The notes beneath the pieces are model-generated. The model did no database searches. It saw nothing but the letters and a program-made list of their open reading frames with translations, and was not told where the DNA came from. 64,000 nt of DNA from a virus: positions 26,739 to 90,738 of IMG/VR virus record IMGVR_UViG_3300045988_110023. One strand, 5' to 3'. Position numbers and translations under genes: made by a program. Positions 48,758 through 64,000 of the stretch are shown in pieces; position 1 is the first letter of the stretch, and each line of letters starts with the position of its first letter.

Positions 48758-48768
48758 ATTCTTATCGC

Positions 48769-48801: not shown

Positions 48802-48922
48802 GCAGGAGCCGAAGCTCCCTATTTTTGGCTAATCGGGGCCGTTTTTAAAAATCCCCTCCTACCCTCACGGGCAAGAGAGGACACTCATTTAAACAATCTA
48901 GCTATGAAAAACTAGAAATATC

Positions 48923-49351: not shown

Positions 49352-49408
49352 TATTTTAATTGGTTAAACAATGGCAGGAGATGGCTGCTAACCACCTCCA
49401 GTTTTAGC

Positions 49409-50428
49409 TTAATCCTCATCTAGACCGTTATCGAGGTCTTCTTCATAGACGCCGAACAATCTCAGTGTATTGCTGTCAATCTCGGTCTTACCGACAATGT
49501 AGCGCTGCGTCATCTGGATATTCGGCATACCGTTACTGGTATGTCCCATCATGACGGCAATCTGCTCAAGAGGCACTCCCTTCTTTGAGAGATTCGTTGC
49601 GAACGAGCGTCTGCCGGTATGGGATGATACGAACCGATACTTCTTTCCTGTCTCTTCCTTTCCGGCTTTGAACACCTTTGTATTCGTATCTATTCCGCAG
49701 TCACGACAGATATCGCGGAGAGCTCTATTGAACGTCCTTTCACCTATCTCACCCGGAAGAGGCTCGTCACCAGTACCGCATACGAGGAACGGACGGAGCT
49801 TCTTGTGAAGTGGAACCCTTACCTCGGTCTTTGTTTTCTGAGTAACATAGACGAGGAAGTGTCCGGTATCATCTATGTTCTCTTCCGTCATTCTCTGGCA
49901 GTCGCTGTAACGTGCGCCACAGAGACATTCCATGATAAACATTCTCTGAACATATCTTTTTGTTTTCCCGTGAGGGTTGTACTTTATGATTCTGTTTATC
50001 TCCTCATCAGAGAGATATACAGACTGGACCGGTACAGCCTTCGCTCTAAGTATTCTGCCGAACGTAGGACTAGGGATTTCCCTGGTAGCATCGTTCTCAC
50101 GTATCACAGCCTTGATGGTTGCACATACGGTTCTTGCCGAGTTAGGAGCGTAGTTCTCCTGGATCTTCTCGAAGAGGTCGCGCAGATTGTCGTCGGTGAT
50201 GTCTTCCCATAATGGCTTATGTCCTAGCATCTCTTCGAACATCCTTACAACCTTAATAAGTTTCGGATATTTCCAGATGTATGCGCCATAGAACGTGTCA
50301 TGCCTCCAGGCGTTGCTGTGATAATTGGCGAACCAACCCTGCTTGATGGCAGTCTTGTACTTCTGCTGCTGTGTGTAGCTCAGAAGTCTCTCCCAATCTC
50401 TTGTCTTGATTCTTATTTCTTCTGTCAT
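49409..50428 (-). CDS. Tyrosine recombinase (second integrase-family gene)
   Basis: 339 aa. ...FVSSHTGRRSFATNLSKKGVPLEQIAVMMGHTSNGMPNIQMTQRYI (HxxR...H...Y catalytic region). An R in ...CLCGARYSDCQRM lies upstream. Confidence 0.85.
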   Translation of the reverse strand: MTEEIRIKTRDWERLLSYTQQQKYKTAIKQGWFANYHSNAWRHDTFYGAYIWKYPKLIKVVRMFEEMLGHKPLWEDITDDNLRDLFEKIQENYAPNSARTVCATIKAVIRENDATREIPSPTFGRILRAKAVPVQSVYLSDEEINRIIKYNPHGKTKRYVQRMFIMECLCGARYSDCQRMTEENIDDTGHFLVYVTQKTKTEVRVPLHKKLRPFLVCGTGDEPLPGEIGERTFNRALRDICRDCGIDTNTKVFKAGKEETGKKYRFVSSHTGRRSFATNLSKKGVPLEQIAVMMGHTSNGMPNIQMTQRYIVGKTEIDSNTLRLFGVYEEDLDNGLDED

Positions 50429-50511
50429 AATTCTAATATTTTGGTTACTAGTGGCAAAGATACGAAAAGTTTATAATATAAACCATCGTCTTTGCCGTTT
50501 TTAACGCTAAT

Positions 50512-51030
50512 TTAACCTTCCGAAGCAGTCTGCTTCTCGACTGATACGAGTCTTAGGGTAGAACCATTATGGTCATTCCACACACGCATGTAGTCTTCCG
50601 CCTCATCCAATGCATCTTTATATGATTTTGCTCGGAATACGTACGGATTCTCCTTAGGAATGAAAATTCCATCATTGTAGGCAATCTTATACTTTGCAGC
50701 ATAGACACCAATATAGCCGTTCAGCTCGTCGTTCAGACTAGTAGCGATGTCTGCAAGAAGGTCAACTGGTATATCATCATCGATAGCTTTTGCTTCCGGG
50801 AACTCAAACCCTACAGAAGTGCATCGGCTATGAATGATAGGGATAGCTGTATCGCTGTCGCCTACTTCTACGATGTTCACCTCCCTGTTGTCGCCGGCAC
50901 GTACAGGCCAATCGAACACCTTTCTGCTCACATTGTGCTCTCTCATTATCTCACGGATGGTGCATGCAAGCTCCATCTTTGCTGTTGAACGCAATTCATC
51001 AATCTTGTCTTTCAATACTTTTCTCTTCAT
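50512..51030 (-). CDS. Hypothetical protein
   Basis: 172-aa ORF with the standard start unit. Confidence 0.7.
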   Translation of the reverse strand: MKRKVLKDKIDELRSTAKMELACTIREIMREHNVSRKVFDWPVRAGDNREVNIVEVGDSDTAIPIIHSRCTSVGFEFPEAKAIDDDIPVDLLADIATSLNDELNGYIGVYAAKYKIAYNDGIFIPKENPYVFRAKSYKDALDEAEDYMRVWNDHNGSTLRLVSVEKQTASEG

Positions 51031-51084
51031 AATCTTAATATTTTGGTTTAAATTGATGCCCGCCTTCCGGCAGGCTTGTTTGGC

Positions 51085-51657
51085 TTAGTCTTTTCTTTCG
51101 ATATCAAGGCCCGTAAGCACGCCTTTCATATAGGCTAATGTCTCTTCCTTGCATTCCGATAGAAACTTCTGGCAGCCATCAATGATAACGCCGTACTTAC
51201 CGCTCGGATAATTCTGTAGAGAGCACGAGTGGTAATGCTTTCCGGATTTTTCCTCGATTTCTCCTGCGAGTCGCTTCCCTTCGTCGGTCTCATTTGGACG
51301 ATTTTCTGGGTACTCATCGTAAAAATACTCGTGCCATAAATCTAGTAGCATATCCTTGCAATCCTCCATATCTTGCAAAATATCCGATAATTTGTATGGC
51401 GCGCCGTTAGCACCATGTCCATCCTCGCCAATCCATTTACTGGCTTCCTCGTCAGGATCGAAGTCGCTATAATATTGATACAACTTATCCATAAAGTCAG
51501 ACTTATTGCCATTCTCGAACCAAATTGTGGCGATGAAATCTTGGTCTTGTGGGGAATACTTCTCTAACTCGACGCAAACCTCACCTCTTTCGTTAGGTGT
51601 ATCGTCTACATTATAACTCCAGTCTAATTCCTCTGCTATTTTTAAAAAATCATTCAT
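51085..51657 (-). CDS. Hypothetical acidic protein
   Basis: 190-aa ORF, D/E/Y-rich, with the standard start unit. Confidence 0.7.
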   Translation of the reverse strand: MNDFLKIAEELDWSYNVDDTPNERGEVCVELEKYSPQDQDFIATIWFENGNKSDFMDKLYQYYSDFDPDEEASKWIGEDGHGANGAPYKLSDILQDMEDCKDMLLDLWHEYFYDEYPENRPNETDEGKRLAGEIEEKSGKHYHSCSLQNYPSGKYGVIIDGCQKFLSECKEETLAYMKGVLTGLDIERKD

Positions 51658-51705
51658 ATTTTTAATTTTAATTGGTTAATACTTGCACCCTCCGAAGAGG
51701 GCTTT

Positions 51706-52107
51706 TTAGGCTTCCTGGTAAGCGAGAATCTGTATGTGACGCATCTCGAAATTGACGAAGATGTTAAGATATATACCAGCGTAAGTAAGGAGCGTGGTTC
51801 CGTTGTTTTCCTCGGTGATAATTTTCTTTTGCTCTGTGCCCATGAGGTTATTTACCAGGTCGTTTGCCACCATAGCCAGGCGGAGATTGTCTGAGTTATC
51901 CTTTATCCATCTGACATCCATAGAGTTGCCATAAACTTCTGCATGGCAGGCGTTAGAATAGATGAAACCTACAGCCTCGTTGCATCCGTCGTCCGTATAC
52001 TCGCCATCGTCGAACATATTCTCCCACAGAGTGTCATGATAGAGATCGTTCTCAATATCGAATTCACTCAGATTTTTTACATTTACATCTACTATTTCCA
52101 TAATCAT
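51706..52107 (-). CDS. Hypothetical protein
   Basis: 133-aa ORF. Confidence 0.7.
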   Translation of the reverse strand: MIMEIVDVNVKNLSEFDIENDLYHDTLWENMFDDGEYTDDGCNEAVGFIYSNACHAEVYGNSMDVRWIKDNSDNLRLAMVANDLVNNLMGTEQKKIITEENNGTTLLTYAGIYLNIFVNFEMRHIQILAYQEA

Positions 52108-52168
52108 TCTACTTTAATTGGTTAATACTAGGAGCGTGAAACAATAATGTTCCACGCCTTGTTCGGCT

Positions 52169-52603
52169 TTACACCGGCAGAGACACGATGTATTCCTTCT
52201 TCTTCTTTCGTGTTCTGCTCTTCACAGTGAATCCACAAAAATCTCTCAGCCACCCGGCAGCATTGCCGATGAATGGCTCGTTCACCATAAGGATAGGACG
52301 GAGCATTCCGTTCTTCTTCATGAACTGATAGTCTATGAATTCGAACGGGTCATCCGGGTCCTCACTCCTCTTCTCCCAAACGCTGACATCGAGATAGTCG
52401 ATGAAGTCTCCCTCTGGCGGGTTATCCATCTCGATGAATCTCTTCGGAGTTAGGAGAATCGTCTCCTTAGGCTCATGGGTCATAAAGAAATTCTCTATAA
52501 CCTCGTTGAACTTGTTCATGTCCATCTGTTTCTGGACAATGCCCTTTCTCTTCATGATGTCGGAAGCTTTGAGCATTCTTGTACCTCTTCTTGCTACTGC
52601 CAT
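52169..52603 (-). CDS. Hypothetical protein
   Basis: 144-aa ORF. ATG lies in the AGAATTATG-type context (TTTGAATTATG). Confidence 0.7.
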   Translation of the reverse strand: MAVARRGTRMLKASDIMKRKGIVQKQMDMNKFNEVIENFFMTHEPKETILLTPKRFIEMDNPPEGDFIDYLDVSVWEKRSEDPDDPFEFIDYQFMKKNGMLRPILMVNEPFIGNAAGWLRDFCGFTVKSRTRKKKKEYIVSLPV

Positions 52604-52655
52604 AATTCAAAATTTTAATTGGTTAAACATAGTACCCTCCGAAGAGGGCTTTTGG

Positions 52656-53360
52656 CTAGTGTGCAAGGAATCCTACCGCCTGCCCCTTACCGATGGACCA
52701 GCATAGTCTGTCTTCCTTCAGGCACTCTGTGCAGTTTCCGGTACACAGACGTGTTCCTTCCGGAGCAGACGTTCCGCTCTCGAAGATAGGATGCGCCTCA
52801 GGGAATCCATGGCGGTTATCCATCTTAAGACCAAGCCATCCGCTGAATAGGATATGCATGTTCTCTGGGATTACATTGCCCTCATCGAGATACTCGTTGC
52901 ATACATCGAACATCTTCGTGAACGCCAGGAACTTGGTATCCTTGTGCTTGCGTGCAATATCGCACATCTTGTCAAGATACCATTTATTCTGGATATCACC
53001 GCCGATATGGAATCGGAAGGCTCTAGGAAATCTGTAGTCGAGATACCCGTCAATCTCCTTGAAGTATCGTTCAGGATCCTCGTGGAGAATGGCAGAATTG
53101 ATAGCTCTCGTCTTGATGACCTCCTTGTAAATCATGTCATTGCGCAGGTCGTAGCAGCTCTTCGCACAGATTGCACAGTTGCCGCAATCCATGACCGGGA
53201 TAAGCGATACAGATGGGATTACTCCCAACTTGCTGTTGCCATCGCTGATCTTGACATGCAAGTCGCTGACGTTCTCTACTGCGTTCTCATAAGCTGCCTG
53301 TGCCTTTGACAGACGAGTCTTCATTCCTTCCTTACCTAATGTCCAGTAATTTCTACTCAT
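52656..53360 (-). CDS. Cys-cluster protein (possible metal or Fe-S binding), family not confidently recognised
   Basis: 234 aa with MDCGNCAICAKSCY and CTGNCTECLKEDRLC clusters and FRFHIGGD. Confidence 0.65.
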   Translation of the reverse strand: MSRNYWTLGKEGMKTRLSKAQAAYENAVENVSDLHVKISDGNSKLGVIPSVSLIPVMDCGNCAICAKSCYDLRNDMIYKEVIKTRAINSAILHEDPERYFKEIDGYLDYRFPRAFRFHIGGDIQNKWYLDKMCDIARKHKDTKFLAFTKMFDVCNEYLDEGNVIPENMHILFSGWLGLKMDNRHGFPEAHPIFESGTSAPEGTRLCTGNCTECLKEDRLCWSIGKGQAVGFLAH

Positions 53361-53494
53361 AATTCTAATTTAAAATTGGTTAAACTAGTGGTACAAAAAA
53401 CCGGCGTGTCTCACGACAGACCGGCTTGAACCATTTAAACAAAATTTAGTTATGATATGAGTAGCCAGCCGCTGCTAACGACTGACATTTTTGG

Positions 53495-53890
53495 CTAATC
53501 TTCATCTACTTTTACATTGTAGTGAAATCTTACAGTAAGGTAATCTGTGCTCAGAAAGAATGTATAGATTAAAGGCTCAGCCTGGCGTTCGTCGAGATAC
53601 TGCTTCGTCTCGAAATAGTATATATTATTTTTTGATTCGCCAGTCAGTCGTTTGACAATCTCTCTACCCCACTCTGATGTAATCCACGATCGAAGCTTCC
53701 TGATAGATAGGTAGTTTCCGTGATACTCTATCATTGTAGGTGCGCCTCCTACAAATCCCAATGAAAAAAACTTATTGGTGAGATATTGCGAATCGTCAAA
53801 GATGGCGTCTAGAAGTGATTCCTCGACGACATTCTTCCCGTCAATAAGAGCCTTAATATACTCTCTTGTGTCTACATTAATTTCCTTCAT
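53495..53890 (-). CDS. Hypothetical protein
   Basis: 131-aa ORF. Confidence 0.7.
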   Translation of the reverse strand: MKEINVDTREYIKALIDGKNVVEESLLDAIFDDSQYLTNKFFSLGFVGGAPTMIEYHGNYLSIRKLRSWITSEWGREIVKRLTGESKNNIYYFETKQYLDERQAEPLIYTFFLSTDYLTVRFHYNVKVDED

Positions 53891-54121
53891 AATTCTTAAT
53901 TTTATTGGTTAGACTTTGAATCGGTTACCGAATCAGTAACCGACTTTTTGGGCTAGAATGGCTCCCGGCTGGCGCCTTGCTTTAATAGTTCGATCTAGAG
54001 AGCTTTAGCTCGAAGGATTACCTCCAGTAGTGACTGGAGGAGATCCTTCGTTGAAGAAGCTCTTGTGAATTGCTGCCGAGCCACCATTCCATAGGTGGCG
54101 AACCTTACGTCCTACTGATGA

Positions 54122-55177
54122 TTACTTGTTCTCGCTCTTGGCTTTCTTCCACTCAAGAATCTTGCCCTGGATGTCTATATCAGACTCTTTGATGAGCTGC
54201 TTGAGAACACCGAGCATTCTCCAACCTTCTTCGTCGTAGAGCTTGGCTTTTGACTCAAGCTCCTTAAGGGAGTTGGTTTCTGACATCTTTCGTCCGTTCT
54301 TCAGGAATCTTGCTCCGTGGAACATGATGAGGTTTCTCATCGTGTAGTAGGAACCTGAACCCTTGTAGGCAGTAATGAACGCATCAGCCTGCTTGGTATC
54401 CCACGCGAGATGCTTGCGGTTCTTGTTGAACTTGCGAACGGCATCGTAGAGTTCCTTGTAGGTTTCTGCAACACTCATCTTGTTGGCAAGGTCACGGAGA
54501 GGATTGTATACCTTTCTCTCCAAGTCAGCGACGAAGATGTTTTCGTTCTGAAGACGGATATAAGGATTACCCTTGCAGGTATGCTTGTATGTCTTCTTCT
54601 TGTTTCCATCCTTGTCCTCCTTGGTAGTGTAGATGCACTTGTCGTCAATGTAGCTGCGAAGCTTGTTAATATAGTCAATAGCCATATCGTGTGCTACGCA
54701 GCCGTTGAACCAGCGGTTTCTCGCCTTGAGATTCTCGTAGTCCTTGTGGTCACACATCTTCATCTGAGCATACAGCTCGTTCTCCAACATGCGCCACTGG
54801 TACTCGTAGCCTTTCTTCTGCAACACCTCGTTGAATGACTTGCCGTCCTTCTCCATGTCTCGCAACATGTGGAATATCTGACTCATCACCCAACGACGGA
54901 AGAGCTTCCAGTTACTTACGTATCCACCCTCGACAATCTGCTTGCCTACCGCATCGATGGTTGCATCGTCCATATCAACAGGAACAGCCGCACCATTTTC
55001 GATTTTGATAAGCTGATCATCACCGAGAGGGAAATATTTACTAGTATCAACACCTGCTGCCTTAAGAGCTTCGAGACGCATCTGCGCCTTGGTCTTCTTA
55101 CCGGTAGCTGCTGTAGCCTCTACATTGTTAGTTACGATGTTCAAGTTCTCACCAGTGATTGTTACAATCTGCTTCAT
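54122..55177 (-). CDS. Hypothetical protein
   Basis: 351-aa ORF, the largest non-enzymatic gene of the array. No family recognised. Confidence 0.75.
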   Translation of the reverse strand: MKQIVTITGENLNIVTNNVEATAATGKKTKAQMRLEALKAAGVDTSKYFPLGDDQLIKIENGAAVPVDMDDATIDAVGKQIVEGGYVSNWKLFRRWVMSQIFHMLRDMEKDGKSFNEVLQKKGYEYQWRMLENELYAQMKMCDHKDYENLKARNRWFNGCVAHDMAIDYINKLRSYIDDKCIYTTKEDKDGNKKKTYKHTCKGNPYIRLQNENIFVADLERKVYNPLRDLANKMSVAETYKELYDAVRKFNKNRKHLAWDTKQADAFITAYKGSGSYYTMRNLIMFHGARFLKNGRKMSETNSLKELESKAKLYDEEGWRMLGVLKQLIKESDIDIQGKILEWKKAKSENK

Positions 55178-55359
55178 AATTCTAATAATTTTAAATTGGT
55201 TACTAAAAATTTATTTAACTCTAGTGGATGAGGCTTACGCCCCACCCTTGTTTGGCTCAACCCAGTCTCTGAGGATAATCAGGTCCCTGTCATTTTCAGA
55301 CTTCCAGAACCATCTTCCCCACCTGTTCTCCCATGCAAGGTTGCCTCTTAGAAGCTGAA

Positions 55360-55686
55360 TCAGTATGTATAGCTCCGCTTACATCTAGCTACCTCTCGTC
55401 GCTCACCATACATCATATCTTCGTCTGAGAGCTCTTTCTCGGGCAAAGCCTTGAAGTAGTAGCGGCGATGGGATTCAGAACGCTCAGACGGCACAGAATG
55501 TTTGTATGCCATATATCTCTGTTCTATTGCGAACAGGACTACTGCATGTGTCAGGTAAGGTGTATCTTTCGGCTTATCTTCCTCAGACATTACTATCTTA
55601 CCATTCATCCTACATGTCCTCTTCTGGAAGTTGATGGTGAACTTAGCACCATTCTCAACTGCATTGATAATCTCGTCGTATGTCAT
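55360..55686 (-). CDS. Hypothetical protein, possibly frameshifted at its 3' end
   Basis: 108-aa ORF. Unlike its neighbours its stop is not in the AGCC(T/A)AAA motif. An alternative frame continues to a TAAGCC stop at 55235. Confidence 0.6.
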   Translation of the reverse strand: MTYDEIINAVENGAKFTINFQKRTCRMNGKIVMSEEDKPKDTPYLTHAVVLFAIEQRYMAYKHSVPSERSESHRRYYFKALPEKELSDEDMMYGERREVARCKRSYTY

Positions 55687-55718
55687 AATTCTATTGTATT
55701 GGTTAATAGGGATAGTGC

Positions 55719-55964
55719 TTATTCTTGCACTATCAAATTGGCTTCTTCGAGTTCATCCTTACTCAGTACATCTTCGTCTTCTCCGATGTGGATATAGAAT
55801 TTGTCTCCGTTCGCCCACTCCATTGCACGCATATACAACCAGTGAGCCTCTTCGATAGAGAATCCGTCTGCGCTTACTGAATCAAGCATCTCGCCCATGC
55901 AAACTTCTGACGTTTCGTACTCTTTCTTGATTTCCTCAAGCTTCTTTAGTAATCTGCTGTTCAT
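55719..55964 (-). CDS. Hypothetical acidic protein
   Basis: 81-aa ORF with the standard start unit TTAACCAATATTTAAGAATTATG. Confidence 0.7.
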   Translation of the reverse strand: MNSRLLKKLEEIKKEYETSEVCMGEMLDSVSADGFSIEEAHWLYMRAMEWANGDKFYIHIGEDEDVLSKDELEEANLIVQE

Positions 55965-55989
55965 AATTCTTAAATATTGGTTAATGGGA

Positions 55990-57318
55990 GTGCGCTCAGA
56001 GAATCTGTTGCGTAACTATAAGGTCTTGATTAATACTGTATCTAAGTCCTGACAGATCCAGGTAACCACCTGGATCTTCAGGATGATTGATACCGTATTG
56101 TACAATCTATTCTCCTTGCGCACAATTCGGCTCGCAATAACCTAGTCTGACTCAACCTGATACGTTGCATTGCTTTAAGTTTTTGATTAAGGGCGTGGCA
56201 TTGTTATGAAGCCAACCTCAGGAAGCGTACGCTTCCCCATCCTTGGCTTCAGAATCAATGAAACGCTCGATGAACTCTCAGAACTTGCCAGACATCGCTG
56301 CAATGCGCATGACTTATCTCATGTATTATGTTGCATGGATATATGTTCTTGATTCGATCCCGTGTTTGGATACCTGCGCCTGCGGGGATAACGGCAGGCG
56401 GCAGGTATACCACTCACGTGATATTAAACCTCATACTCTTGATAAGTCGTGATGCAATTCACTTTTGGTTGTTGTAGGTACACTCATAGGTCTGTTGTCT
56501 TACTATAGGCTGATGATTTAACCCGCTTGCCGATACGCGAGATTGCTGGTATTACCAGACATATCGCGTTGATACAAGGCGGGTTGAATAAACCGATACC
56601 TCCTCGTGTACCTCGTTTGGCAATAACGTTGTCTTTATCTGAGAGCGTGGCACGTAGCTATAGCAGCTTGATTCGAGGGCTGTTGTAAGCCGCCGGAGTA
56701 CCCGGATAGTGTTCCGGGGAGGCCGGCGGCATGTAAACAGCACTCATAAATTCACTCTCCTCTAAAGACTACCCTCGTGCTAGGGTGATTCCCTGACCGA
56801 TGGCTCGGCACAATACTTTATGTTTCTGATTTGACACAGGATTCGCCAGAATAGGTGATCCAGGACAATGCGCCTACTGCGCAGCCGTCCAGGATCAACT
56901 ACTCTGGTTAAGAGACCTGTTGCATAAACTTCAGCCATCCGTCAGGGAGTGGTGGTGTGCGCCACCGGTGGTGGTCATACGGAATGTCACATTTCTGTAC
57001 TTCGTTGATGAGCTACGCCTTGTGCGTCATACGAGGGGCCCGAGGTGTCTCAAGTTGCAAACTTGGATAACTCGGTCCCCTCAGATGATGTTATAGAGGC
57101 GTCGCCTGAATCTGTCCGTCCTTCTCCCACGTCCGTGTGCTCGGTTACAGAGTCTGCCGGTCAGAAGATACTGCGCATAGCTATATCAGATTGATAATAT
57201 CCGGTTTAGGACGAGCGTAGGACCCATCTCATTGAGATGAGGTCCATGCACTCCGCAACCGGGATATTTAAAACCTTGTGTCTTCATTCCGGCAAAATCC
57301 TTGCGCTAGGATGCTCGT
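55990..57318. ncRNA. Candidate large structured non-coding RNA (or structured DNA) immediately 3' of the reverse transcriptase gene
   Basis: 1.33 kb with no ORF above 69 codons in six frames. It sits in an array where spacers are otherwise about 45-70 nt. It is visibly G+C-richer and holds at least 9 long, near-perfect stem-loops (see findings). The strand is not determinable from the stems because they are almost all Watson-Crick. Confidence 0.45.
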
Positions 57319-58584
57319 CTACAGAGTATTCACCAATGTGTTGTACGCTGCCCTGCTCGTTCGCAAGGCATTCTGAGCACAACCTATCGATAGATACCCC
57401 TTGATTTCGCTCTCTGTCTTACTCCTGTTGGCTTTCACGTTCCTTCCACGACCTCGGTCTATGCAACCTACAGCCTGAGTCTTCACGTATCCGAGACCAC
57501 CGACCTTTCTCTTGCCTGTCTTGACCGCACGGATGCAGTCCATGACGAAGGTGTTGAGCTTGTCGATGTCCTCTTTCACGTTTATGACTGGAAGAACCTG
57601 AGTAGACCAGGAATAATCGCAGTACCCCTTGTAGAGATACCTGTTTACTGCATTGATGGCTTTCGTCATCGTGGTGTCACGTTTCTTTATCGTCCTCTTC
57701 TCAATCTCCTTCTGAAAGGTCTTGATGCGTGTGGACGACAGAGAGATATTGTGACCCTTGATGGAATATCCCAAGAACTTAAACCAGTGATTAGCATCAA
57801 GATACTCAACCTTCTTCGGATTGAGCGTCATCTGCATCATCTCCAGCTCGCTCTTCATGATATCCATGGCTTTCTCATAGTCTTCACCGACAAACAGCGT
57901 ATCATCTGAATAGCGGACGTAATATCCGTTAAGCTTAGATAGCTTGTCGTCAAGATGATAGAGAATGACATCAGCCAGCCATGCAGCAACAGAACATCCC
58001 TGCTTGAGGGACTGATACTTCTCACAGAGGTTATTGTCCTCATCGAAATAGATATCCGTGTGATAGTAGTCACGAATGACATCTATCAGCGCAGACTTTC
58101 CGTACTTCTCCTCTACCTTGTCGAATGCCCAGTCGATGAACCGAATAGGCACGGAATCAAAGTACTTGGAGAAGTCACCTTTCCATCCGATGATTTTACC
58201 ATCTGCCGAGTATATTATCCGAGAAACATCTTGCACCACACGACCGCAGCCGATACCCTTTTGGTATGACGTACAGCGTGGATGCACCATCTCTGGCATC
58301 AGCTCGAACAAGAGGTCGTTTGCTATGCTCAAGAGGATTCTGTCTACAGGTTCATTCACATAGACCGTACGGAAATCTCCGTTGTCTTTCGGAATCTTGG
58401 CTGTATGAGGCGGCATTATCTTGTAATTTCCGCTCTTGATCCTCTGATACATGGCCAGACGAGCCTCAGGTGTTGTAAGCTGATACATTACTGCTTTGTT
58501 CATGTCCTTGAATAAGCCTTTCTCGATAGCATACTGCCATCTGGCTTTCTCGAAGAACATCTCTAGGATTCTGTCTTCATTCAT
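57319..58584 (-). CDS. Reverse transcriptase (stand-alone, class undetermined)
   Basis: RT motifs 1-7: KIPKDNGDFRTVYV, SYQKGIGCGR, GWKGDFSKYFDSVP, SLKQGCSVAAWLADVILY, YVRYSDDTLFVG (YxDD), LNPKKVEYL, FKFLGYSI. A basic C-terminal extension of about 90 aa follows. Confidence 0.9.
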   Translation of the reverse strand: MNEDRILEMFFEKARWQYAIEKGLFKDMNKAVMYQLTTPEARLAMYQRIKSGNYKIMPPHTAKIPKDNGDFRTVYVNEPVDRILLSIANDLLFELMPEMVHPRCTSYQKGIGCGRVVQDVSRIIYSADGKIIGWKGDFSKYFDSVPIRFIDWAFDKVEEKYGKSALIDVIRDYYHTDIYFDEDNNLCEKYQSLKQGCSVAAWLADVILYHLDDKLSKLNGYYVRYSDDTLFVGEDYEKAMDIMKSELEMMQMTLNPKKVEYLDANHWFKFLGYSIKGHNISLSSTRIKTFQKEIEKRTIKKRDTTMTKAINAVNRYLYKGYCDYSWSTQVLPVINVKEDIDKLNTFVMDCIRAVKTGKRKVGGLGYVKTQAVGCIDRGRGRNVKANRSKTESEIKGYLSIGCAQNALRTSRAAYNTLVNTL

Positions 58585-58632
58585 AATTCTTATGTTTTGG
58601 TTATTGGTAGGGAGATTACTCTCCCCATTTGG

Positions 58633-58863
58633 CTAGTCGATGTGCTGATAAACATCTCCTCCCTGCTCTTTTTCGTTGTCAGCATAAAACTCCTGATTAG
58701 AATCAAGCTCTATTTCTTCGTTTACAAAATTGCTGGAATCGAGAACGATGACAGAATCATTGTAGGCTGTTTGTACTTGTTCAAGCGCATCTTTCTCACT
58801 CTTGGCATCGACGCTGACAATCTTGTTTAAAGTCTCTGTGACTGATACGTAATATCTCTTCAT
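58633..58863 (-). CDS. Hypothetical acidic protein
   Basis: The start is placed at MKRYYVSV (58863) in the AGAATTATG context. The track ORF extends to 58986. Confidence 0.65.
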   Translation of the reverse strand: MKRYYVSVTETLNKIVSVDAKSEKDALEQVQTAYNDSVIVLDSSNFVNEEIELDSNQEFYADNEKEQGGDVYQHID

Positions 58864-58916
58864 AATTCTTAATAATTTATTGGTTAATAATGTCAGAGGG
58901 ATTGCTCCCTCCGTTT

Positions 58917-59174
58917 TTAGGCTAATGCGTCCAATACTCTGTGGGCGTTGTATGCGACAGGATTGCTGTATTTTACCCTCTCCCACTTTTTACGCTCACA
59001 AACTTTCAAGCAATACTCATGTGCTATATTCTCTGATAGTGCATCGAACGTGTCGTGTGTGACATCTGATGGTTTACCGAAATAAACTCTGTAACCATCC
59101 CTGTAGCATACTATACGTCTGCCAAGTCTGTAGATTGTTCTACTGCCTTTCTCTACAAATGTAATTCTTTCCAT
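58917..59174 (-). CDS. Hypothetical protein
   Basis: The start is placed at MERITFVEKG (59174) in the AGAATTATG context. Confidence 0.65.
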   Translation of the reverse strand: MERITFVEKGSRTIYRLGRRIVCYRDGYRVYFGKPSDVTHDTFDALSENIAHEYCLKVCERKKWERVKYSNPVAYNAHRVLDALA

Positions 59175-59221
59175 AATTCTCTGTATTTGGTTATTGGTAG
59201 GTAGCCAAATGGCTACCAATT

Positions 59222-59560
59222 TTAGGCTTCGTTCCATGCTTTCCACGCTTCATCCGTATTCTTGGTGATTGCCTCGTTCCAAAGTTTCTCCAATTTATAG
59301 AAAATCTTCTGGAAAGCCTTCGATGTTGCCTTTGGGTCAATGCGCTTGCCGAGATAAGGTCGATTACGTGTAATCGTAATTTCGTCCTCGCACCAGCAAC
59401 ACCTGATCATCCCATACTCCGTAGGAGAACAACCTAGGTAAATTCCTTTTGCGTCATAACGCTCTTTACGTAACCACTTCGGGTAAGGAACGTAAATGGT
59501 CCATGCGTCAACACAGAAACGGAACTTCTTTCTTGTGTCGTGATAAAGTTTCAATTTCAT
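59222..59560 (-). CDS. Hypothetical protein
   Basis: The start is placed at MKLKLYHD (59560), preceded by a CAACCAAAATACAAATAATTATG unit. Confidence 0.65.
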   Translation of the reverse strand: MKLKLYHDTRKKFRFCVDAWTIYVPYPKWLRKERYDAKGIYLGCSPTEYGMIRCCWCEDEITITRNRPYLGKRIDPKATSKAFQKIFYKLEKLWNEAITKNTDEAWKAWNEA

Positions 59561-59609
59561 AATTATTTGTATTTTGGTTGATAGAAGAGGAGCATGCAAG
59601 CTCCCCTTG

Positions 59610-60455
59610 TTAGGCTGCATCTTTCGTCTGTAAGCCGTGTTCTTTGATAACCTCTTCTATGAGGTCATCAGCATCTTCGAAGTACTCTCCGCAACAGGAT
59701 TCAATCTGCTCCCACTCGTAGGAATCAGAAGATTTACCGTCCTCGTACAATTTTGTATACGGGCGTTTCTTTTCTAGGACGTAACTTTTTACATCACCCC
59801 ACATCCACATACCAATATTCTTGACTTCGCTCTCAAACAGCTCGATGGCACGATTCTTCCAGTTCTTGGTATTCGTATCCACCATCTTCTTGAAGCGCTC
59901 CTTGTCGCAATAGGCATATCCTCTAACATAATCTCCCTGGCTATATCCACTGGAAGACCACTCGTAGAATGCTATATCCTTGCAGTTTTCAAGGAGATTA
60001 ATAAAATCATCTTCTTCAAGCTCTTCTGTAAGCTCATCCCTAACATCCTCGTTCTTCAGTTCGTTAGGAGTGAAATCTCTAATGTTGTACCACTCGTTCT
60101 TGCCGATGCTGAATCTTGATTTTCTTTCAAAACTCCACATGTGGCACGACTTGTCGTATTCGAGACACAGATGATCGCAATGAAACATACTATTGATATA
60201 CTTGATAATCTTCTTTTGTGGAACATACTTGCAGACAAGCTCTTTCAAGGCAGCCTCTGCATTTTCAGCGTCGACTTCACTGCTACAACCACGAGAAAGT
60301 CCCCTGTTGTATCCGTAATCAGAATAGTCCCAGAAGTAAACGCCTGCCAAATCCCATTCTGTGCAAGGGCATTCGGCATCCTCATCCTGGTAAATGGTGA
60401 TTCTGTAATCACCGATTTCCTTCTTTGCAAATTCGTAACTCATATCTAATATCAT
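59610..60455 (-). CDS. Hypothetical acidic protein
   Basis: 281 aa. ITIYQDEDAECPCTEWD...WGDVKSYVLEKK...ESCCGEYFED. An alternative start is at 60443 (MSYEF). Confidence 0.7.
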   Translation of the reverse strand: MILDMSYEFAKKEIGDYRITIYQDEDAECPCTEWDLAGVYFWDYSDYGYNRGLSRGCSSEVDAENAEAALKELVCKYVPQKKIIKYINSMFHCDHLCLEYDKSCHMWSFERKSRFSIGKNEWYNIRDFTPNELKNEDVRDELTEELEEDDFINLLENCKDIAFYEWSSSGYSQGDYVRGYAYCDKERFKKMVDTNTKNWKNRAIELFESEVKNIGMWMWGDVKSYVLEKKRPYTKLYEDGKSSDSYEWEQIESCCGEYFEDADDLIEEVIKEHGLQTKDAA

Positions 60456-60498
60456 TTAAATGGTTTAACATTGAATATCCCCATGCTAGGGGATATTG

Positions 60499-61038
60499 TT
60501 AGGCTTCCTCATAATCTTCCTCCATCATAGAGTGAATCTCTTCAAGTTCGTTCGAGAAATTGTACTTGATGTTGTACGTGCCGAACGCCTTGAAGTACCA
60601 CTCTTCAAGGTACGCTCTGTCCTCGTCAGCCTGCTCGCTGTCCTCTGCCGAATCAAGTCTGGCTACCATCTGAGGATAAAAATCGTAGTAATCGTCGCCA
60701 TCGTAGTCCGTCGCCCAGAACGTACCTGTAACGTGTCTAGGATAATCGTTGTACAGATTGGCAAAATTACCATCCATGCGCTGGTCATTAAGATGGAGAT
60801 ATTTCTTCATCTCTCTGTTTACCTTATGGGTAAACTCCCATGCAAGAGACTGGATATTCTTTCCGTACAAATCGGCAATGTATTCTTCCATGTCTTCTGC
60901 GTCATCGAAATTCTCCAGGCATTCGCGATAGAGGCCTTCGATTGTCTTGGCAAAGCTTTTTACACCGATATAATCGGCTACTTTTTCGATAACCTCACCC
61001 TTGCTGTTCATAACATATTCCCAAATATTCTTTTCCAT
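60499..61038 (-). CDS. Hypothetical strongly acidic protein
   Basis: 179 aa, D/E/Y-rich throughout. The antisense 185-aa ORF is spurious. Confidence 0.7.
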   Translation of the reverse strand: MEKNIWEYVMNSKGEVIEKVADYIGVKSFAKTIEGLYRECLENFDDAEDMEEYIADLYGKNIQSLAWEFTHKVNREMKKYLHLNDQRMDGNFANLYNDYPRHVTGTFWATDYDGDDYYDFYPQMVARLDSAEDSEQADEDRAYLEEWYFKAFGTYNIKYNFSNELEEIHSMMEEDYEEA

Positions 61039-61090
61039 AATTCATCTGTTTAATGGTTCATAATTGTTCCCCACGATGATGTGGGGAGTT

Positions 61091-61330
61091 TTAGCCACAT
61101 ATGGCAATGTCGCCATAATTTCTGTAGAAATGCTTGTATGCCTCAAGACCACTTGCAGCTTTCAAGTCTGTGACCTCTAGCTTACCGGTATCCTTGCGTA
61201 CCTCTGCAATAGAGAATGAATTGTCGTGCGTCCACTTGATGAGGTCCACACGCCTAACAGGATTCTCTACTGACTCAACGATTTTACACTTCAGTAAATC
61301 GTCATTCAGTATTTTCTCTAAATCACTCAT
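61091..61330 (-). CDS. Hypothetical protein
   Basis: The start is placed at MSDLEKIL (61330) in the AGAATTATG context. The track ORF extends to 61540 across the next intergenic unit. Confidence 0.65.
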   Translation of the reverse strand: MSDLEKILNDDLLKCKIVESVENPVRRVDLIKWTHDNSFSIAEVRKDTGKLEVTDLKAASGLEAYKHFYRNYGDIAICG

Positions 61331-61388
61331 AATTCTGTAATTTTTTGTTAATAGAAATCCCCACCCGTGAGAGTGAGGATTGGTTTGG

Positions 61389-61853
61389 CTAATCATCGAA
61401 ATCACTTTCATCCTGATCGTACCACCAGTCCTGGAATCGATTTGCAACCTCTTCCAGTGCATACTTGGCAAATGTGTCGTAGATATTTCTGCTCTCGCCC
61501 TCGTTAAAAGGAGCATACAGAGCCTTGCCGATAGCATCATAGGTGACAGATTTGTCGTCCTTGAAATTCCCGAATCCCTTAATCATCGTGATAAGGTCTT
61601 CTCCCAAATCATCGGCAAGCTCGTGCATATTCTCCATGATAGCACTCTTGTTCTCGTTCCAGAACTTGCTTGTCTGATAAGTATAACAGAATCCAGTGTA
61701 CCCGTCATTTGCATTTCTGCAACTATCGAGAGAATTCAATATCGTGTCTTCATCGACACCACCAAGCTGCTCTACTACGGCATATGCCATCTTTACGAAT
61801 GATGGATTATCATTTTCCTTGATAAACGCATCCCATACTTTCTGTATATTCAT
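61389..61853 (-). CDS. Hypothetical acidic protein
   Basis: 154 aa ending in DQDESDFDD. Confidence 0.7.
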   Translation of the reverse strand: MNIQKVWDAFIKENDNPSFVKMAYAVVEQLGGVDEDTILNSLDSCRNANDGYTGFCYTYQTSKFWNENKSAIMENMHELADDLGEDLITMIKGFGNFKDDKSVTYDAIGKALYAPFNEGESRNIYDTFAKYALEEVANRFQDWWYDQDESDFDD

Positions 61854-61913
61854 ATTTCTGTATTTTGGTTGATAATAGAAACGAGCAAGCGCACCATACG
61901 CTTACCCGTAATT

Positions 61914-62132
61914 TTAGCCGAAAACCCAGATAGCCGTAGTTCTTGCACAAATGGCATATAGCTTTCCGCTGTGACCACGGAACAGCATTCCGTTGCATCC
62001 GTACACACCGGAAGAATAGCCTACCTGACTATATTCTTCCGGGATGGCTGCACGGCTTGAACTGTGTGTTATATCCTTGGCAGCTCCTACTCTAACGAGT
62101 CTCTTCAACTCTTTCTGTGTCATTTTCTCCAT
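61914..62132 (-). CDS. Hypothetical protein
   Basis: 72-aa ORF with the standard start unit. Confidence 0.65.
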   Translation of the reverse strand: MEKMTQKELKRLVRVGAAKDITHSSSRAAIPEEYSQVGYSSGVYGCNGMLFRGHSGKLYAICARTTAIWVFG

Positions 62133-62194
62133 AATTCTTTAATTTTGATGGTTTAACATGGTTTCTGTGCAGATAGACTGCACAGAATGTTTGG

Positions 62195-62371
62195 CTAGAA
62201 CTTGCGAGGACGCATGCACGATTGCTCAATCTCCAGAGCTTTCTTGTCTGCACGCGCTACGCGTCTGAAATACTCGCTCTTGTCGAGGTTCTTGCGTCTG
62301 CACTCCTCGCTGATAACTGCCTTGTGACTCGCTACGAGCCTGGCAAGGAACTTTCTGTCTCCGTCTGTCAT
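62195..62371 (-). CDS. Small basic protein (58 aa), possibly ribbon-helix-helix-like. Not in the ORF track.
   Basis: MTDGDRKFLARLVASHKAVISEECRRKNLDKSEYFRRVARADKKALEIEQSCMRPRKF. ATG lies in the TTTGAATTATG unit and the stop in TAGCCAAAC. The listed ORFs 62226-62507 (-) and 62222-62677 (+) are in other frames. Confidence 0.55.
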   Translation of the reverse strand: MTDGDRKFLARLVASHKAVISEECRRKNLDKSEYFRRVARADKKALEIEQSCMRPRKF

Positions 62372-62430
62372 AATTCAAAATTTGATTGGTTAATAGCAGG
62401 CAGCACATTATCGTACTGCCCAGTTCTGGC

Positions 62431-62700
62431 TCAGAGATTGTACACCGGACTTTCTGAAGCACACAGAATCGTAGGACCGGTGAGGATGGAGAATGCACAA
62501 GGGTCAAAGCCCTCGATATTCTTCATGCTCTCGATTTTCTTCTGTATCTCAGCACGTATGGATGACAGACTCAATCTGCCATCGATAGGCATGACAGAAT
62601 CCATGCCCACCATTTCCACAACGCTCACCTCATCGATGAATCTCATGTTCACAAGGTCAAACTTGTTAATCTTATGATAAAATTGTACCCATTTACTCAT
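62431..62700 (-). CDS. Hypothetical protein
   Basis: 89-aa ORF with the standard start unit. Confidence 0.65.
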   Translation of the reverse strand: MSKWVQFYHKINKFDLVNMRFIDEVSVVEMVGMDSVMPIDGRLSLSSIRAEIQKKIESMKNIEGFDPCAFSILTGPTILCASESPVYNL

Positions 62701-62749
62701 AATTCTACATTTTGGTTTATAGGAGAGGGAGTTTTATCTCCCTCATTTT

Positions 62750-63034
62750 TCAGGCTGTGTACTTCTTGAGAAATTCTGCGAGCTTGTTGTATTCATCGTC
62801 AATTTCTTCCTTGTTATCCACATAAAAGAAATTTGCGGTACAGCAGTCTGTAACTTTACACGTATCATCAAAGACAGCAGCATGAGCAGACATAGATCCG
62901 GTTTCTCCGTCTAATCTGACAGTAAGGCTCACGCCTGGCAGACTCTCTGCCAAATCTCTCTGAATTTTCTGCAATTTTGGCATGATGGTAGAACGTATGT
63001 ACTCTACATTCTCCTTGTATTCTTCATCTATCAT
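62750..63034 (-). CDS. Hypothetical protein, paralogue of 63087-63377
   Basis: IMPKLQKIQRD and EYNKLAEFLKKYTA parallel ILPRLQEIQRD and EYEKLTDFIKVHSA in the neighbour. Confidence 0.7.
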   Translation of the reverse strand: MIDEEYKENVEYIRSTIMPKLQKIQRDLAESLPGVSLTVRLDGETGSMSAHAAVFDDTCKVTDCCTANFFYVDNKEEIDDEYNKLAEFLKKYTA

Positions 63035-63086
63035 AATCTATAATTTTTGGTGAATAATTGTATGCGTGACAGTTGCCACGCACATT

Positions 63087-63377
63087 TTAGGCTGAATGTA
63101 CCTTAATGAAGTCTGTGAGTTTTTCGTACTCGGACTCCAGCTTTTCTCTGTCAAGCACGCAGGAGAGATGTAGGTGTAGGTATTTGTTGACCTTACCATA
63201 CATGATGGTGTAGGCATGGCAGACGATGTATTTGCCCTCAGGATCTACGTCTACCTCCAGACCAATCTTATTCTTGCCGAATATGTCACGCTGAATCTCC
63301 TGCAATCTAGGCAGAATCTTGTTGCGCAGATATTCTCTGCTCTTCTCTTCCCATTTAGGATTCTCTAATTTCTTCAT
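63087..63377 (-). CDS. Hypothetical protein, paralogue of 62750-63034
   Basis: See 62750-63034. The upstream hairpins are also near-identical (GTGCGTGGCAACTGTCACGCA versus GTGCGTGGCGGTTGTCACGCA on the minus strand). Confidence 0.7.
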   Translation of the reverse strand: MKKLENPKWEEKSREYLRNKILPRLQEIQRDIFGKNKIGLEVDVDPEGKYIVCHAYTIMYGKVNKYLHLHLSCVLDREKLESEYEKLTDFIKVHSA

Positions 63378-63425
63378 AATCTAAAATATTGGTGAATAGT
63401 ATGCGTGACAACCGCCACGCACATT

Positions 63426-63602
63426 TCAGCTCATGCACAGCACCGCTATCTCAGAGAAGCTCTTGGAGATAGCTTTCTTGCTACGATAATCTCTGTAGCC
63501 CTTAGTATTGTTGCTATGCCACTGGCGCGCTGCTATCTTGATCTTCTCCATCTCATGCATAAGCGCACGCTCAAAATTCTTCTGTGATTTTCTGTCTAAC
63601 AT
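63426..63602 (-). CDS. Small basic protein (58 aa), not in the ORF track
   Basis: MLDRKSQKNFERALMHEMEKIKIAARQWHSNNTKGYRDYRSKKAISKSFSEIAVLCMS. ATG lies in the AGAATTATG unit. Confidence 0.5.
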   Translation of the reverse strand: MLDRKSQKNFERALMHEMEKIKIAARQWHSNNTKGYRDYRSKKAISKSFSEIAVLCMS

Positions 63603-63665
63603 AATTCTGTAATTTAATTGGTTAATACTGGATACCGCCCGAATATCTCCAAGCGGTAGTTTTGG

Positions 63666-63875
63666 CTAGTCACAGATATCCTCTATCTGCTGCTGGATGG
63701 CATCTATCATCACACTGATGATAAACAGACCGCACATTTCAAGAACCGCAGAATATAAAACGGCTTGAAAATCTCCAAGCACAAATCCTACGATGGCAAT
63801 AAAACCACACACGAAACTTGTAACTAATACGAGCGCAGCAGATAGAACGCCCTTTCTTACGATATACTTTTCCAT
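63666..63875 (-). CDS. Small membrane protein
   Basis: 69 aa with two TM helices. Standard start and stop units. Confidence 0.65.
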   Translation of the reverse strand: MEKYIVRKGVLSAALVLVTSFVCGFIAIVGFVLGDFQAVLYSAVLEMCGLFIISVMIDAIQQQIEDICD

Positions 63876-63921
63876 AATTCTCTTGTTTAACTGGTTATAT
63901 TATCGTACTGCCTGAATTTCT

Positions 63922-64000
63922 CCAAGCAGAATTTAGCCAAATGTTTCCAAGCAGAATTTAGCCAAATGTTTCCAAGCAGAATTTAGCCAAATGTTTCCAA
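63922..64000. repeat. 25-bp perfect tandem repeat, at least 3.1 copies, running off the window edge
   Basis: CCAAGCAGAATTTAGCCAAATGTTT at 63922-63946, 63947-63971 and 63972-63996, followed by CCAA. Each unit contains TTAGCCAA, the reverse complement of the TTGGCTAA motif found in the intergenic units. Confidence 0.9.

Follow-up and report, generated by a model that had tools for sequence, protein, structure and literature searches.

A repeated junction unit in the gene array of an apparent Bacteroidales gut phage is a widespread regulatory and recombination element

Results

A minus-strand gene array built on one junction unit

The 64,000-nucleotide stretch of viral DNA analysed here (hereafter the window; IMG/VR record IMGVR_UViG_3300045988_110023, positions 26,739 to 90,738) looks like part of the temperate-type genome of a Bacteroidales gut phage. 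On its minus strand, from 48,755 to 63,938, lie 27 co-oriented gene junctions that were read and tabulated, and almost every gene in this block of ~15 kb is parted from the next gene by one small unit. Read along the minus strand, the unit consists of box1, (A/G)GC(C/T)(T/A)AA, which lies over the stop codon, followed by a hairpin, then box2, ATTAACCAA(T/A), and after a further 11–17 nt the sequence AGAATT immediately ahead of the ATG of the next gene. Judging by relatives, the array goes on past the right edge of the window. An original prediction, made from the letters of this DNA, had described an intergenic unit repeated about 25 times between 49,352 and 63,921. That regularity is real, all of the example coordinates given for it are present (the hairpin GCCCTCTTCGGAGGGT is found at both 51,687–51,702 and 52,634–52,649), and the array reaches past the stated limits, an extra full unit lying at 48,755–48,830. 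The units are listed below with their elements in minus-strand order.

Unit 1, 63,873–63,938 (minus strand): box1 variant GGCTAAA, hairpin 63,908–63,929, box2 variant TAACCAG, GAGAATTATG; preceded by 25-bp tandem repeats
Unit 2, 63,600–63,667 (minus strand): TAGCCAAA (stop TAG), hairpin 63,633–63,658, ATTAACCAAT, CAGAATTATG
Unit 3, 63,375–63,431 (minus strand): AGCTGAA (stop TGA), hairpin 63,400–63,423, box2 variant TTCACCAAT, TAGATTATG
Unit 4, 63,032–63,093 (minus strand): AGCCTAA (stop TAA), hairpin 63,061–63,084, approximately a copy of the unit 3 hairpin, TTCACCAAA, TAGATTATG
Unit 5, 62,698–62,756 (minus strand): AGCCTGA, hairpin 62,725–62,744, ATAAACCAAA, TAGAATTATG
Unit 6, 62,369–62,431 (minus strand): TGAGCCAGA, hairpin 62,398–62,421, ATTAACCAAT, TTGAATTATG
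Unit 7, 62,130–62,196 (minus strand): TAGCCAAA, hairpin 62,165–62,185, TTAAACCATC (start ~62,153), AAGAATTATG
Unit 8, 61,851–61,919 (minus strand): GGCTAAA, hairpin 61,881–61,909, ATCAACCAAA, CAGAAATATG
Unit 9, 61,328–61,390 (minus strand): TAGCCAAA, hairpin 61,356–61,381, degenerate box2 ATTAACAAAA, CAGAATTATG
Unit 10, 61,036–61,096 (minus strand): GGCTAAA, hairpin 61,068–61,087, TGAACCATT, GATGAATTATG
Unit 11, 60,441–60,505 (minus strand): AGCCTAA, hairpin 60,474–60,497, TTAAACCATT, TTAGATATG; second in-frame ATG at 60,455
Unit 12, 59,558–59,616 (minus strand): AGCCTAA, hairpin 59,585–59,608, ATCAACCAAA, AATAATTATG
Unit 13, 59,172–59,228 (minus strand): AGCCTAA, hairpin 59,200–59,217, doubled box2 ACCAATAACCAAA, GAGAATTATG
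Unit 14, 58,861–58,923 (minus strand): AGCCTAA, hairpin 58,894–58,913 (GCAA loop), ATTAACCAAT, AAGAATTATG
Unit 15, 58,582–58,634 (minus strand): TAGCCAAA, hairpin 58,610–58,625 (GTAA loop), ACCAATAACCAAA, AAGAATTATG; ahead of the reverse transcriptase gene
Unit 16 (partial), 55,962–55,983 (minus strand): just ATTAACCAAT and AAGAATTATG; after the 1.3 kb of non-coding sequence that follow the reverse transcriptase gene
Unit 17 (partial), 55,684–55,721 (minus strand): TAAGCA at the stop, no hairpin, ATTAACCAAT, TAGAATTATG
Unit 18 (atypical), 55,175–55,257 (minus strand): AGCCAAA, weak hairpin, long AT-rich run, GTAACCAAT, TAGAATTATG
Unit 19, 53,888–53,954 (minus strand): TAGCCCAAAAA, hairpin TCGGTTACTGATTCGGTAACCGA at 53,921–53,943, CTAACCAAT (start ~53,910), AAGAATTATG
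Unit 20 (atypical), 53,358–53,496 (minus strand): TAGCCAAAAA at the stop, ~60 nt, canonical terminator at ~53,394–53,425 (GC-rich hairpin and TTTTTT), TTTAACCAAT, TAGAATTATG
Unit 21, 52,601–52,657 (minus strand): TAGCCAAAA, UUCG-loop hairpin GCCCTCTTCGGAGGGT at 52,634–52,649, TTTAACCAAT, TTGAATTATG
Unit 22, 52,099–52,168 (minus strand): TAAAGCCGAA, hairpin 52,133–52,158, ATTAACCAAT, TAGAATGATTATG
Unit 23, 51,655–51,712 (minus strand): AGCCTAAAAA, UUCG hairpin as in unit 21 at 51,687–51,702, ATTAACCAAT, TAAAAATATG
Unit 24, 51,028–51,087 (minus strand): TAAGCCAAA, hairpin 51,058–51,075 (GGAA loop), TTAAACCAAA, TAAGATTATG
Unit 25 (atypical), 50,426–50,496 (minus strand): long hairpin 50,453–50,496, GTAACCAAA, TAGAATTATG; ahead of the in-array tyrosine recombinase gene
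Unit 26, 49,349–49,411 (minus strand): TAAGCTAAA, hairpin 49,377–49,399, TTTAACCAAT, TAAAATAATG
Unit 27, 48,755–48,830 (minus strand): TAGCCAAAAA, hairpin 48,804–48,819 (UUCG loop), ATAACCAAG, 32-nt leader, AAGAATATG

An AACCA-type box stands 11–32 nt upstream of the ATG at all 27 junctions. A box1-like sequence, (A/G)GC(C/T)NRA or TAAGC, is found at or adjoining the stop codon at 22 of them, a hairpin with a predicted folding free energy (dG) of −9 kcal/mol or lower at 24, and the succession of hairpin, box2 and start context likewise at 24. Five junctions (55,962–55,983; 55,684–55,721; 55,175–55,257; 53,358–53,496; 50,426–50,496) are partial or atypical in that box1 is absent, the hairpin is absent, or a different hairpin takes its place. 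Boxes 1 and 2 are direct near-repeats of each other, TA(G/A)CCAA, as had been noticed before; they are oriented with transcription and are intergenic only.

The window contains 24 copies of TAACCAA where 8.6 were expected, a count reached by none of 100 shuffles, and 16 of the 24 lie on the minus strand at 48.7–63.7 kb; within the array we found no orphan copies away from the units. Matches to the full-unit pattern on the array strand numbered 21, compared with a mean of 2.7 and a maximum of 9 in 200 second-order Markov resamples, and the half of the pattern comprising box2 and the start context also matched 21 times (0.13 expected). The unit is a real, conserved, strand-specific signal.

Three local observations concern individual units. 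Beyond unit 1, at 63,921–64,000, lie at least three tandem copies of a 25-bp sequence (minus strand TTGGAAACATTTGGCTAAATTCTGC), cut by the window end; each copy comprises the box1 variant GGCTAAA and the 5′ arm of the next hairpin, and the repeat is non-coding because 25 is not divisible by three and a TAA falls in each frame. In unit 25 the 3′ arm of the hairpin holds a canonical host −7 box, TATCTTTG (50,455–50,462), ~8 nt upstream of AACCAA; this is the sole unit with a host-type promoter element, which would put AACCAA at the very start of the transcript. Behind unit 27, a 179-amino-acid (aa) open reading frame (ORF) on the plus strand (48,203–48,742) overlaps nearly all of an 83-aa ORF on the minus strand (48,506–48,757); probably only one of the two is real, and unit 27 favours the shorter, minus-strand ORF.

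The unit is conserved among related phages

A pattern scan of IMG/VR returned at least 116 loci, many on contigs of 50–90 kb and mostly from sample set 3300045988, with up to seven exact pattern matches per locus among the IMG/VR matches listed; a looser pattern identified at least 51 locus strands with at least five units each. In all, the unit recurs on more than 50 related phage contigs of IMG/VR. The related loci are contig fragments, and the units of the family are related by descent, so counts over all units overstate independence and cluster representatives were used where possible. Three arrays (L056, L018 and L068) have zero ORF clusters in common with the window and keep the whole unit architecture, which shows the unit to be conserved as a signal, not left over from genes held in common.

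Seventeen of 20 scanned array proteins had no Pfam or PHROG family. Searches of the array with megablast and blastn against 50,697 phage records gave nothing useful. The nearest annotated proteins, at 47% identity, come from Bacteroides phages, and in the BKO1-TP3 genome of these nearest annotated relatives the genes are tightly packed, going by annotation alone. A pattern scan of 185,579 species genomes for prophage copies gave, among the matches listed, single chance matches in unrelated taxa.

Homology between related arrays breaks at the boxes

For an analysis of mosaicism, four segments of each junction were clustered separately. One and the same hairpin was joined to as many as seven unrelated upstream gene ends and as many as six unrelated downstream ORFs. 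Between such pairs, homology ended within −3 to +8 of box1 in ~70 of 125; among 139 pairs compared at the other end of the unit, the break lay immediately behind AACCAA in 62 and immediately behind the ATG in 20. There are also chimeric units, such as the one in L060, whose left half stems from one unit and whose right half, joined at TAACCAAT, stems from a second. The order of the array genes is colinear between phages, with insertions, deletions and replacements, a pattern in keeping with homologous exchange at short shared sequences and at odds with free reinsertion of cassettes. Judged from these sequence comparisons, the units are the joints of gene-cassette shuffling between related phages.

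A reverse transcriptase and a tyrosine recombinase are both backbone genes of the arrays (ORF-cluster ranks 0 and 6, present in 25 and 17 of 51 arrays, respectively), and the reverse transcriptase is the most widely shared ORF of all. Outside the array, the window encodes a RecET-type pair, exonuclease VIII-like and RecT-like genes at 30,671–31,351 and 32,834–33,718, which could catalyse short-homology exchanges at the units.

The hairpins are selected as coding-strand RNA

The family comprises 123 different hairpin clusters, with stems of 6–13 bp (average 8.8 bp) and loops mostly of 4–6 nt. The hairpin does not differ at every junction, as had been supposed: within the window the UUCG hairpins of units 21 and 23 are identical, and those at 63,400–63,423 and 63,061–63,084 are nearly so. 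The mean dG was −13.4 kcal/mol for the sense strand, −11.1 for the antisense strand and −6.4 for shuffled sequence, the sense fold being the stabler in 248 cases and the antisense fold in 108. With one representative per hairpin cluster (n = 51 tetraloops), GNRA or UNCG tetraloops were found 23 times in the sense strand and twice as their antisense equivalent. G–U pairs are present in the sense strand, stem columns vary less than loop columns (11% versus 35%), and eight pairs show compensatory changes. Sense-fold stability, the strand bias of the tetraloops, and stem conservation with covariation together show that the hairpins act as sense RNA; they are transcribed and selected as coding-strand RNA, and the mRNA-level role once suggested from a few UUCG and GGAA loops is thereby borne out.

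Most of the unit hairpins are not classical terminators in the sense direction, lacking the U-tract that, in an intrinsic terminator, directly follows the GC-rich stem on the transcribed strand; a minority are canonical, for example that at 53,394–53,425. Bacteroidota terminators are near-canonical in form (PMC13613805). An A-tract (at least five A in the 8 nt 5′ of the stem) precedes 44 of 120 hairpin clusters, and because such a tract precedes many stems, a simple terminator scan of the array gave calls mostly on the antisense strand.

Box1 embeds the stop codon in three registers

Box1 is the weakest part of the unit, with a core GC(C/T) followed by a run of A. Across 135 independent upstream gene ends of the unit family, the stop codon was placed as TAG|CC in 33, as GC(C/T)|TAA or TGA in 25, and as TAA or TGA|(A)GC(C/T) in 19. 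The original prediction had seen that the motif overlaps the stop in varying frames, which stands, and had counted two registers where there are three. Since the stop is embedded in three reading registers, box1 is a signal at the level of nucleic acid and not a coding constraint, as had been proposed.

Box2 is positioned relative to the start codon

The units extracted from the window and from related loci numbered 525, 425 of them distinct. Their consensus is C-T-A-y-T-A-T-T-AACCAA-(T/A), followed in ~92% of units by 11–17 nt to the ATG. In the 425 distinct units the ATG is preceded by the hexamer A (80%), G (74%), A, A, T, T, and A is found in 99% at −3, in 80% at −6 and in 64–81% at −14 to −11; in the window's 24 array genes the figures are 92% at −3 and 71% at −6, and the window's other genes have like but weaker preferences. 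Bacteroidetes dispense with a Shine–Dalgarno (SD) sequence, and in Flavobacterium johnsoniae A at −3, −6 and −11 to −14 promotes initiation (PMC6847099). Our position matrices agree with such an SD-less initiation region, which is marked by an AUG, A at −3 and −6, an A-rich −11 to −14, scant G or C and little structure. Since the A positions equal these published initiation determinants, AGAATTATG and the A-rich spacer are best read as a near-optimal SD-less Bacteroidetes translation start site. That work does not account for the G at −5 or for the TT at −2/−1.

The distance of box2 to the hairpin (modes 6 and 9 nt) is more variable than its distance to the ATG, and box2 is also kept after canonical terminators and at junctions without a hairpin. 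The CC of AACCA is invariant, unlike the degenerate A-rich start sites of Bacteroidetes (PMC6847099).

A second, weaker motif, AACTTAAA or TTAAAA, stands at box2's distance from the ATG ahead of tightly packed non-array genes, 12–20 nt upstream of starts (e.g. 11,128; 11,979; 19,806; 20,578; 22,915; 25,863). It lies partly within the preceding ORF, in differing frames; AACTTRAA occurs 17 times against 7.9 expected.

Promoters and the array head

The Bacteroides sigma-A consensus has TTTG at −33 and TAnnTTTG at −7 (PMC7366714). Canonical Bacteroides promoters are present elsewhere in the window, outside the array, and inside arrays of 7–13 kb they occur at chance level. A scan for sigma-70-type hexamers gave no enrichment (27 versus 30.9 expected). 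Two promoter classes read by virion RNA polymerases were rejected. N4-type promoters are hairpins of conserved sequence with a 5–7 bp stem and a 3-nt loop, recognised by the virion RNA polymerase; here there are 123 hairpin clusters with loops mostly of 4–6 nt, and we found no virion polymerase in the window. Promoters of a crAss-like virion RNA polymerase were set aside because the 2,250-aa protein of the window is a tail fibre, which ends in a tail-fibre chaperone domain and has no PDB relative; the crAss paper reported no early motif.

In two related loci, L020 and L006, the head of the array could be read. Its first part is AT-rich and carries operator-like repeats and a canonical promoter; the 173-aa first gene of the array and a canonical terminator come next, and ~700 nt of conserved non-coding sequence separate these from the first unit. 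For the ~700-nt stretch (L006 6,270–7,010; L020, minus strand, 900–1,560), which would lie beyond the window's right edge, Rfam gave no match; a role as leader or antitermination RNA of the array is conceivable.

Other genes and non-coding stretches of the window

The window encodes RtcB, a helicase, RecT-like and exonuclease VIII proteins, two tyrosine recombinases, a Rha/antirepressor protein, the tail fibre and four tRNAs. The gene at 45,004–45,915 (minus strand) encodes a 303-aa fusion of HTH_17, Sigma70_r4 and RNA_pol_A_CTD domains, unusual for a phage regulator; the alpha C-terminal domain assigned to it earlier was thus called correctly, and the protein is a candidate for a factor that redirects host RNA polymerase. 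A cluster of four tRNAs (Met, Thr, Met, Arg-CCU) lies at 36,884–38,094 and the gene for the RtcB RNA ligase at 17,557–18,762; for candidate Quimbyviridae gut phages, an RtcB-type ligase has been suggested to repair tRNAs cut by host anticodon nucleases (PMC8008677).

Directly downstream of the reverse transcriptase gene (57,319–58,584), a stretch of ~1.3 kb (55,990–57,318, minus strand) holds no ORF longer than 52 aa and has no second copy in the window. It is kept in at least 25 related loci at 74–97% identity, and an RNAalifold consensus of nine relatives contains 318 pairs, 78 of them with compensatory double changes. At gathering thresholds Rfam matched tRNAs only, with no match in this or the other long non-coding stretch. 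The 1.3-kb stretch looks like an undescribed large structured RNA tied to the reverse transcriptase. A diversity-generating retroelement was rejected, as the reverse transcriptase is group-II-intron-like (TIGR04416, E = 8.5e-29, below cut-off) and the non-coding stretch beside it occurs just once in the window.

Discussion

Expression signals and cassette joint: a proposed double role

We favour the explanation that the unit is the Bacteroidales-phage counterpart of the promoter early stem-loop (PeSL) elements of T4-type phages, combining expression signals with a cassette joint, and give it a probability of about 0.5. The transcript of the upstream gene would run through box1 and fold the stable tetraloop hairpin, which would probably mark or protect the 3′ end of that mRNA and attenuate read-through. 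ATTAACCAA(T/A), the A-rich spacer, AGAATT and the AUG would form the start module of the next gene, with the SD-less start site making up its 3′ two-thirds. The AACCA box, we infer, most likely fixes the 5′ end of the next gene's mRNA, by first choice as a promoter of a phage class, not of the host sigma-A type, and by second choice as a processing site. As box1, box2 and AGAATTATG would be the sole sequences common to unrelated cassettes, recombination with co-infecting relatives or between neighbouring units would resolve in the boxes, the RecT-like annealing protein and the exonuclease VIII-like nuclease could carry out the exchange, and cassettes of orphan genes (ORFans) would be inserted, deleted and replaced with their expression signals kept.

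A role of AACCA as 5′-end determinant is favoured because the box is invariant, is coupled to the ATG and not to the hairpin, and persists after terminators and without hairpins. A promoter for each cassette is favoured because the cassette would then be expressed wherever it lands. The conserved gene at 52,656–53,360 adds to the promoter argument: it lies directly behind a hairpin-plus-T6 terminator, with just box2 and the start context between.

Several observations weigh against this explanation. The units contain no TTTG-N17-23-TAnnTTTG (the Bacteroides consensus), and the 64 kb yielded neither a phage RNA polymerase nor a clear sigma factor. Box2 as a promoter would leave a leader of just ~4–10 nt, and in B. 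thetaiotaomicron fewer than 4% of 5′ untranslated regions are under 10 nt (PMC7366714); such a leader would also drop the conserved A patch at −11 to −14 from the mRNA. The head in L020 and L006 is laid out as would suit a single long operon under regulation, possibly with antitermination. Five or more T in the 8 nt 3′ of the stem are found in just 18 of 120 hairpin clusters, and because most lack a U-tract and Bacteroidota terminators are normally canonical, the hairpins would insulate neighbouring promoters poorly. Finally, the A-tract of box1 makes the units terminator-shaped for the opposite strand, which the model leaves unexplained.

The main rival explanation, which we think possible if doubtful, is accordingly of the operon kind: the array would be one long early operon and the units would act in RNA alone, as punctuation for selective processing and stabilisation. 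Transcription would come from the operator-controlled canonical promoter of the array head and would perhaps be antiterminated; an endonuclease of host or phage would cut near box1 or box2, the hairpins would protect the ends, AACCAA and the A-rich sequence would serve as an extended ribosome landing site, and recombination at the boxes would be a by-product. Such processing of operon transcripts is an established mechanism (PMC10667835), and it would suit the sense-biased hairpins without U-tracts, units with no host-type promoter in a phage with no polymerase found, and an array head with canonical promoter, operator-like repeats, terminator and ~700-nt non-coding leader. Box2 borders on the sequence around the start codon, from about −20, that ought to be free of structure, and it runs into the A patch at −11 to −14; AACTTAAA takes its place ahead of packed non-array genes, where per-gene promoters are unlikely. 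However, no known nuclease motif matches the boxes, box2 is set more tightly to the ATG than to the hairpin, and the invariant CC of AACCA is unexpected for degenerate A-rich start sites; the genes behind the strong terminator at 53,394–53,425 would need antitermination, and transcription over 15 kb would have to proceed through more than 25 stable hairpins. An RNase P-like substrate was set aside, as the CCA lies 8–11 nt from the stem and is not adjacent to it.

Two further explanations put the boxes to work in DNA. That the TA(G/A)CCAA boxes are repeated, stoperator-like binding sites of a protein such as a repressor or the 45,004–45,915 product, which would silence or activate all cassettes either in the prophage or at one fixed stage of infection, we consider improbable. 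Two direct near-repeats per junction, intergenic only and co-oriented with transcription, speak for such sites, the phage is temperate-like (two tyrosine recombinases and a Rha/antirepressor gene), and the gene for an unusual DNA-binding fusion lies just downstream of the array. Repressor specificities usually diverge among related temperate phages, however, whereas box2 is unchanged in arrays without genes in common with the window, which together suggest that the box is read by conserved host machinery; moreover, box1 is weak and occurs in three registers, and protein binding leaves both the RNA-strand bias of the hairpins and the constant spacing of box2 from the ATG unexplained. Least credible, and in our judgement very unlikely, is that the units are attachment sites of an integron-like or retro-mobile cassette system moved by the recombinase (49,409–50,428) or the reverse transcriptase (57,319–58,584). 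An ORF followed by a structured, variable element with conserved ends resembles an integron cassette, both enzymes are backbone genes of the arrays, and the break points fall exactly at the boxes; but the boxes are direct repeats and not the inverted R''/R' pair of attC, an imperfect palindrome that ends in the core sites RYYYAAC and GTTRRRY; the short hairpins have RNA-type tetraloops and sense-strand G–U pairs, and the cassette order is colinear, not shuffled as from insertion at attI. The recombinase scores 21.7 bits against the integron-integrase model TIGR02249, far under its cut-off of 265, and three break places per junction fit short-homology recombination better than a single crossover.

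A wider reading, which we offer tentatively, takes the unit as a private, standardised cassette connector of a large group of human-gut Bacteroidales phages and AACCA as a new class of gene-start signal. AACCA would then conceivably be a promoter read by host RNA polymerase via a phage or host factor, or else a new RNA-processing code. The three-box layout may, again with some doubt, have been selected for the exchange of orphan genes with immediate expression, and the array-encoded reverse transcriptase and recombinase might take part.

Relation to known systems

The closest described system is that of the PeSLs of T4-type phages (Arbiol, Comeau and Krisch 2010, PMC2839356; Comeau et al. 2014, PMC4122927), which are also marked by cassette mini-circles that arise when neighbouring elements recombine. 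Both are composite intergenic elements in which a stem-loop is followed by a conserved gene-start signal reaching to the start codon, both lie in a hyperplastic region of small orphan genes (orphan genes are flanked by PeSLs; PMC2839356) with the breaks between relatives falling in the elements, and in both a gene travels with its own signals. PeSL promoters, however, are identical to the host sigma-70 consensus and have been shown to be active, whereas box2 has no sigma-A match, and PeSL stem-loops are effective terminators whereas most hairpins here lack a U-tract. Unlike a PeSL, the unit has a third conserved box at the stop codon and an SD-less start site, and it belongs to a temperate-like Bacteroidales phage and not to a T4-like myovirus. 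Because its presumed promoter does not fit the host primary-sigma consensus, we place the unit outside the PeSL family and file it as a probable analogue that works like a PeSL.

Other likenesses are more distant. The start-associated sequences (SAS) and extended SAS of cluster K mycobacteriophages, reportedly described by Pope and colleagues in 2011, are short motifs fixed a few bases upstream of starts, often after an inverted repeat, with 10–20 per genome, and are proposed to act in translation or expression; they differ in sequence, with an SD-like core, and have no box at the stop codon. We know of no report of cassette shuffling at SAS sites. Mimivirus is said, from work by Suhre in 2005 and Byrne in 2009, to have an early promoter, AAAATTGA, and a 'hairpin rule' at transcript 3′ ends. 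It too combines an invariant upstream box at nearly all genes with a hairpin that differs at each junction, defining in mimivirus the 3′ end of the preceding transcript; as a giant virus of eukaryotes that has a polymerase and polyadenylation of its own, it has no evolutionary relation to the phage. The stoperators of cluster A mycobacteriophages are likewise many asymmetric sites in short intergenic regions, oriented with transcription, but they are genome-wide, bound by the immunity repressor so that elongation is blocked, and variable between immunity groups, whereas box2 is confined to one array and invariant across divergent phages. In the RNase III sites of T7 early genes and in operon processing (PMC10667835), structured intercistronic RNA similarly defines and stabilises mature mRNAs; the stems of the unit (6–13 bp) are too short for RNase III, and its flanking single-stranded boxes have no known nuclease specificity. 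We found no description of the motif in the literature searched, including the paper on candidate gut-phage families, which mentions no promoters or intergenic motifs.

Significance

Bacteroidales phages belong to the most abundant human-gut viruses, and their gene regulation is almost unknown. The unit described here is a genuine, widespread regulatory-plus-recombination element. It marks where accessory genes, probably including those for host take-over and anti-defence, pass between phages, and it points to an expression signal other than the known sigma-A promoter. The hairpin, start box and optimal SD-less start form a compact candidate part for engineering Bacteroides and their phages, and the unit could help to pinpoint genuine start codons and the limits of cassettes when metagenomic contigs of this phage group are annotated.

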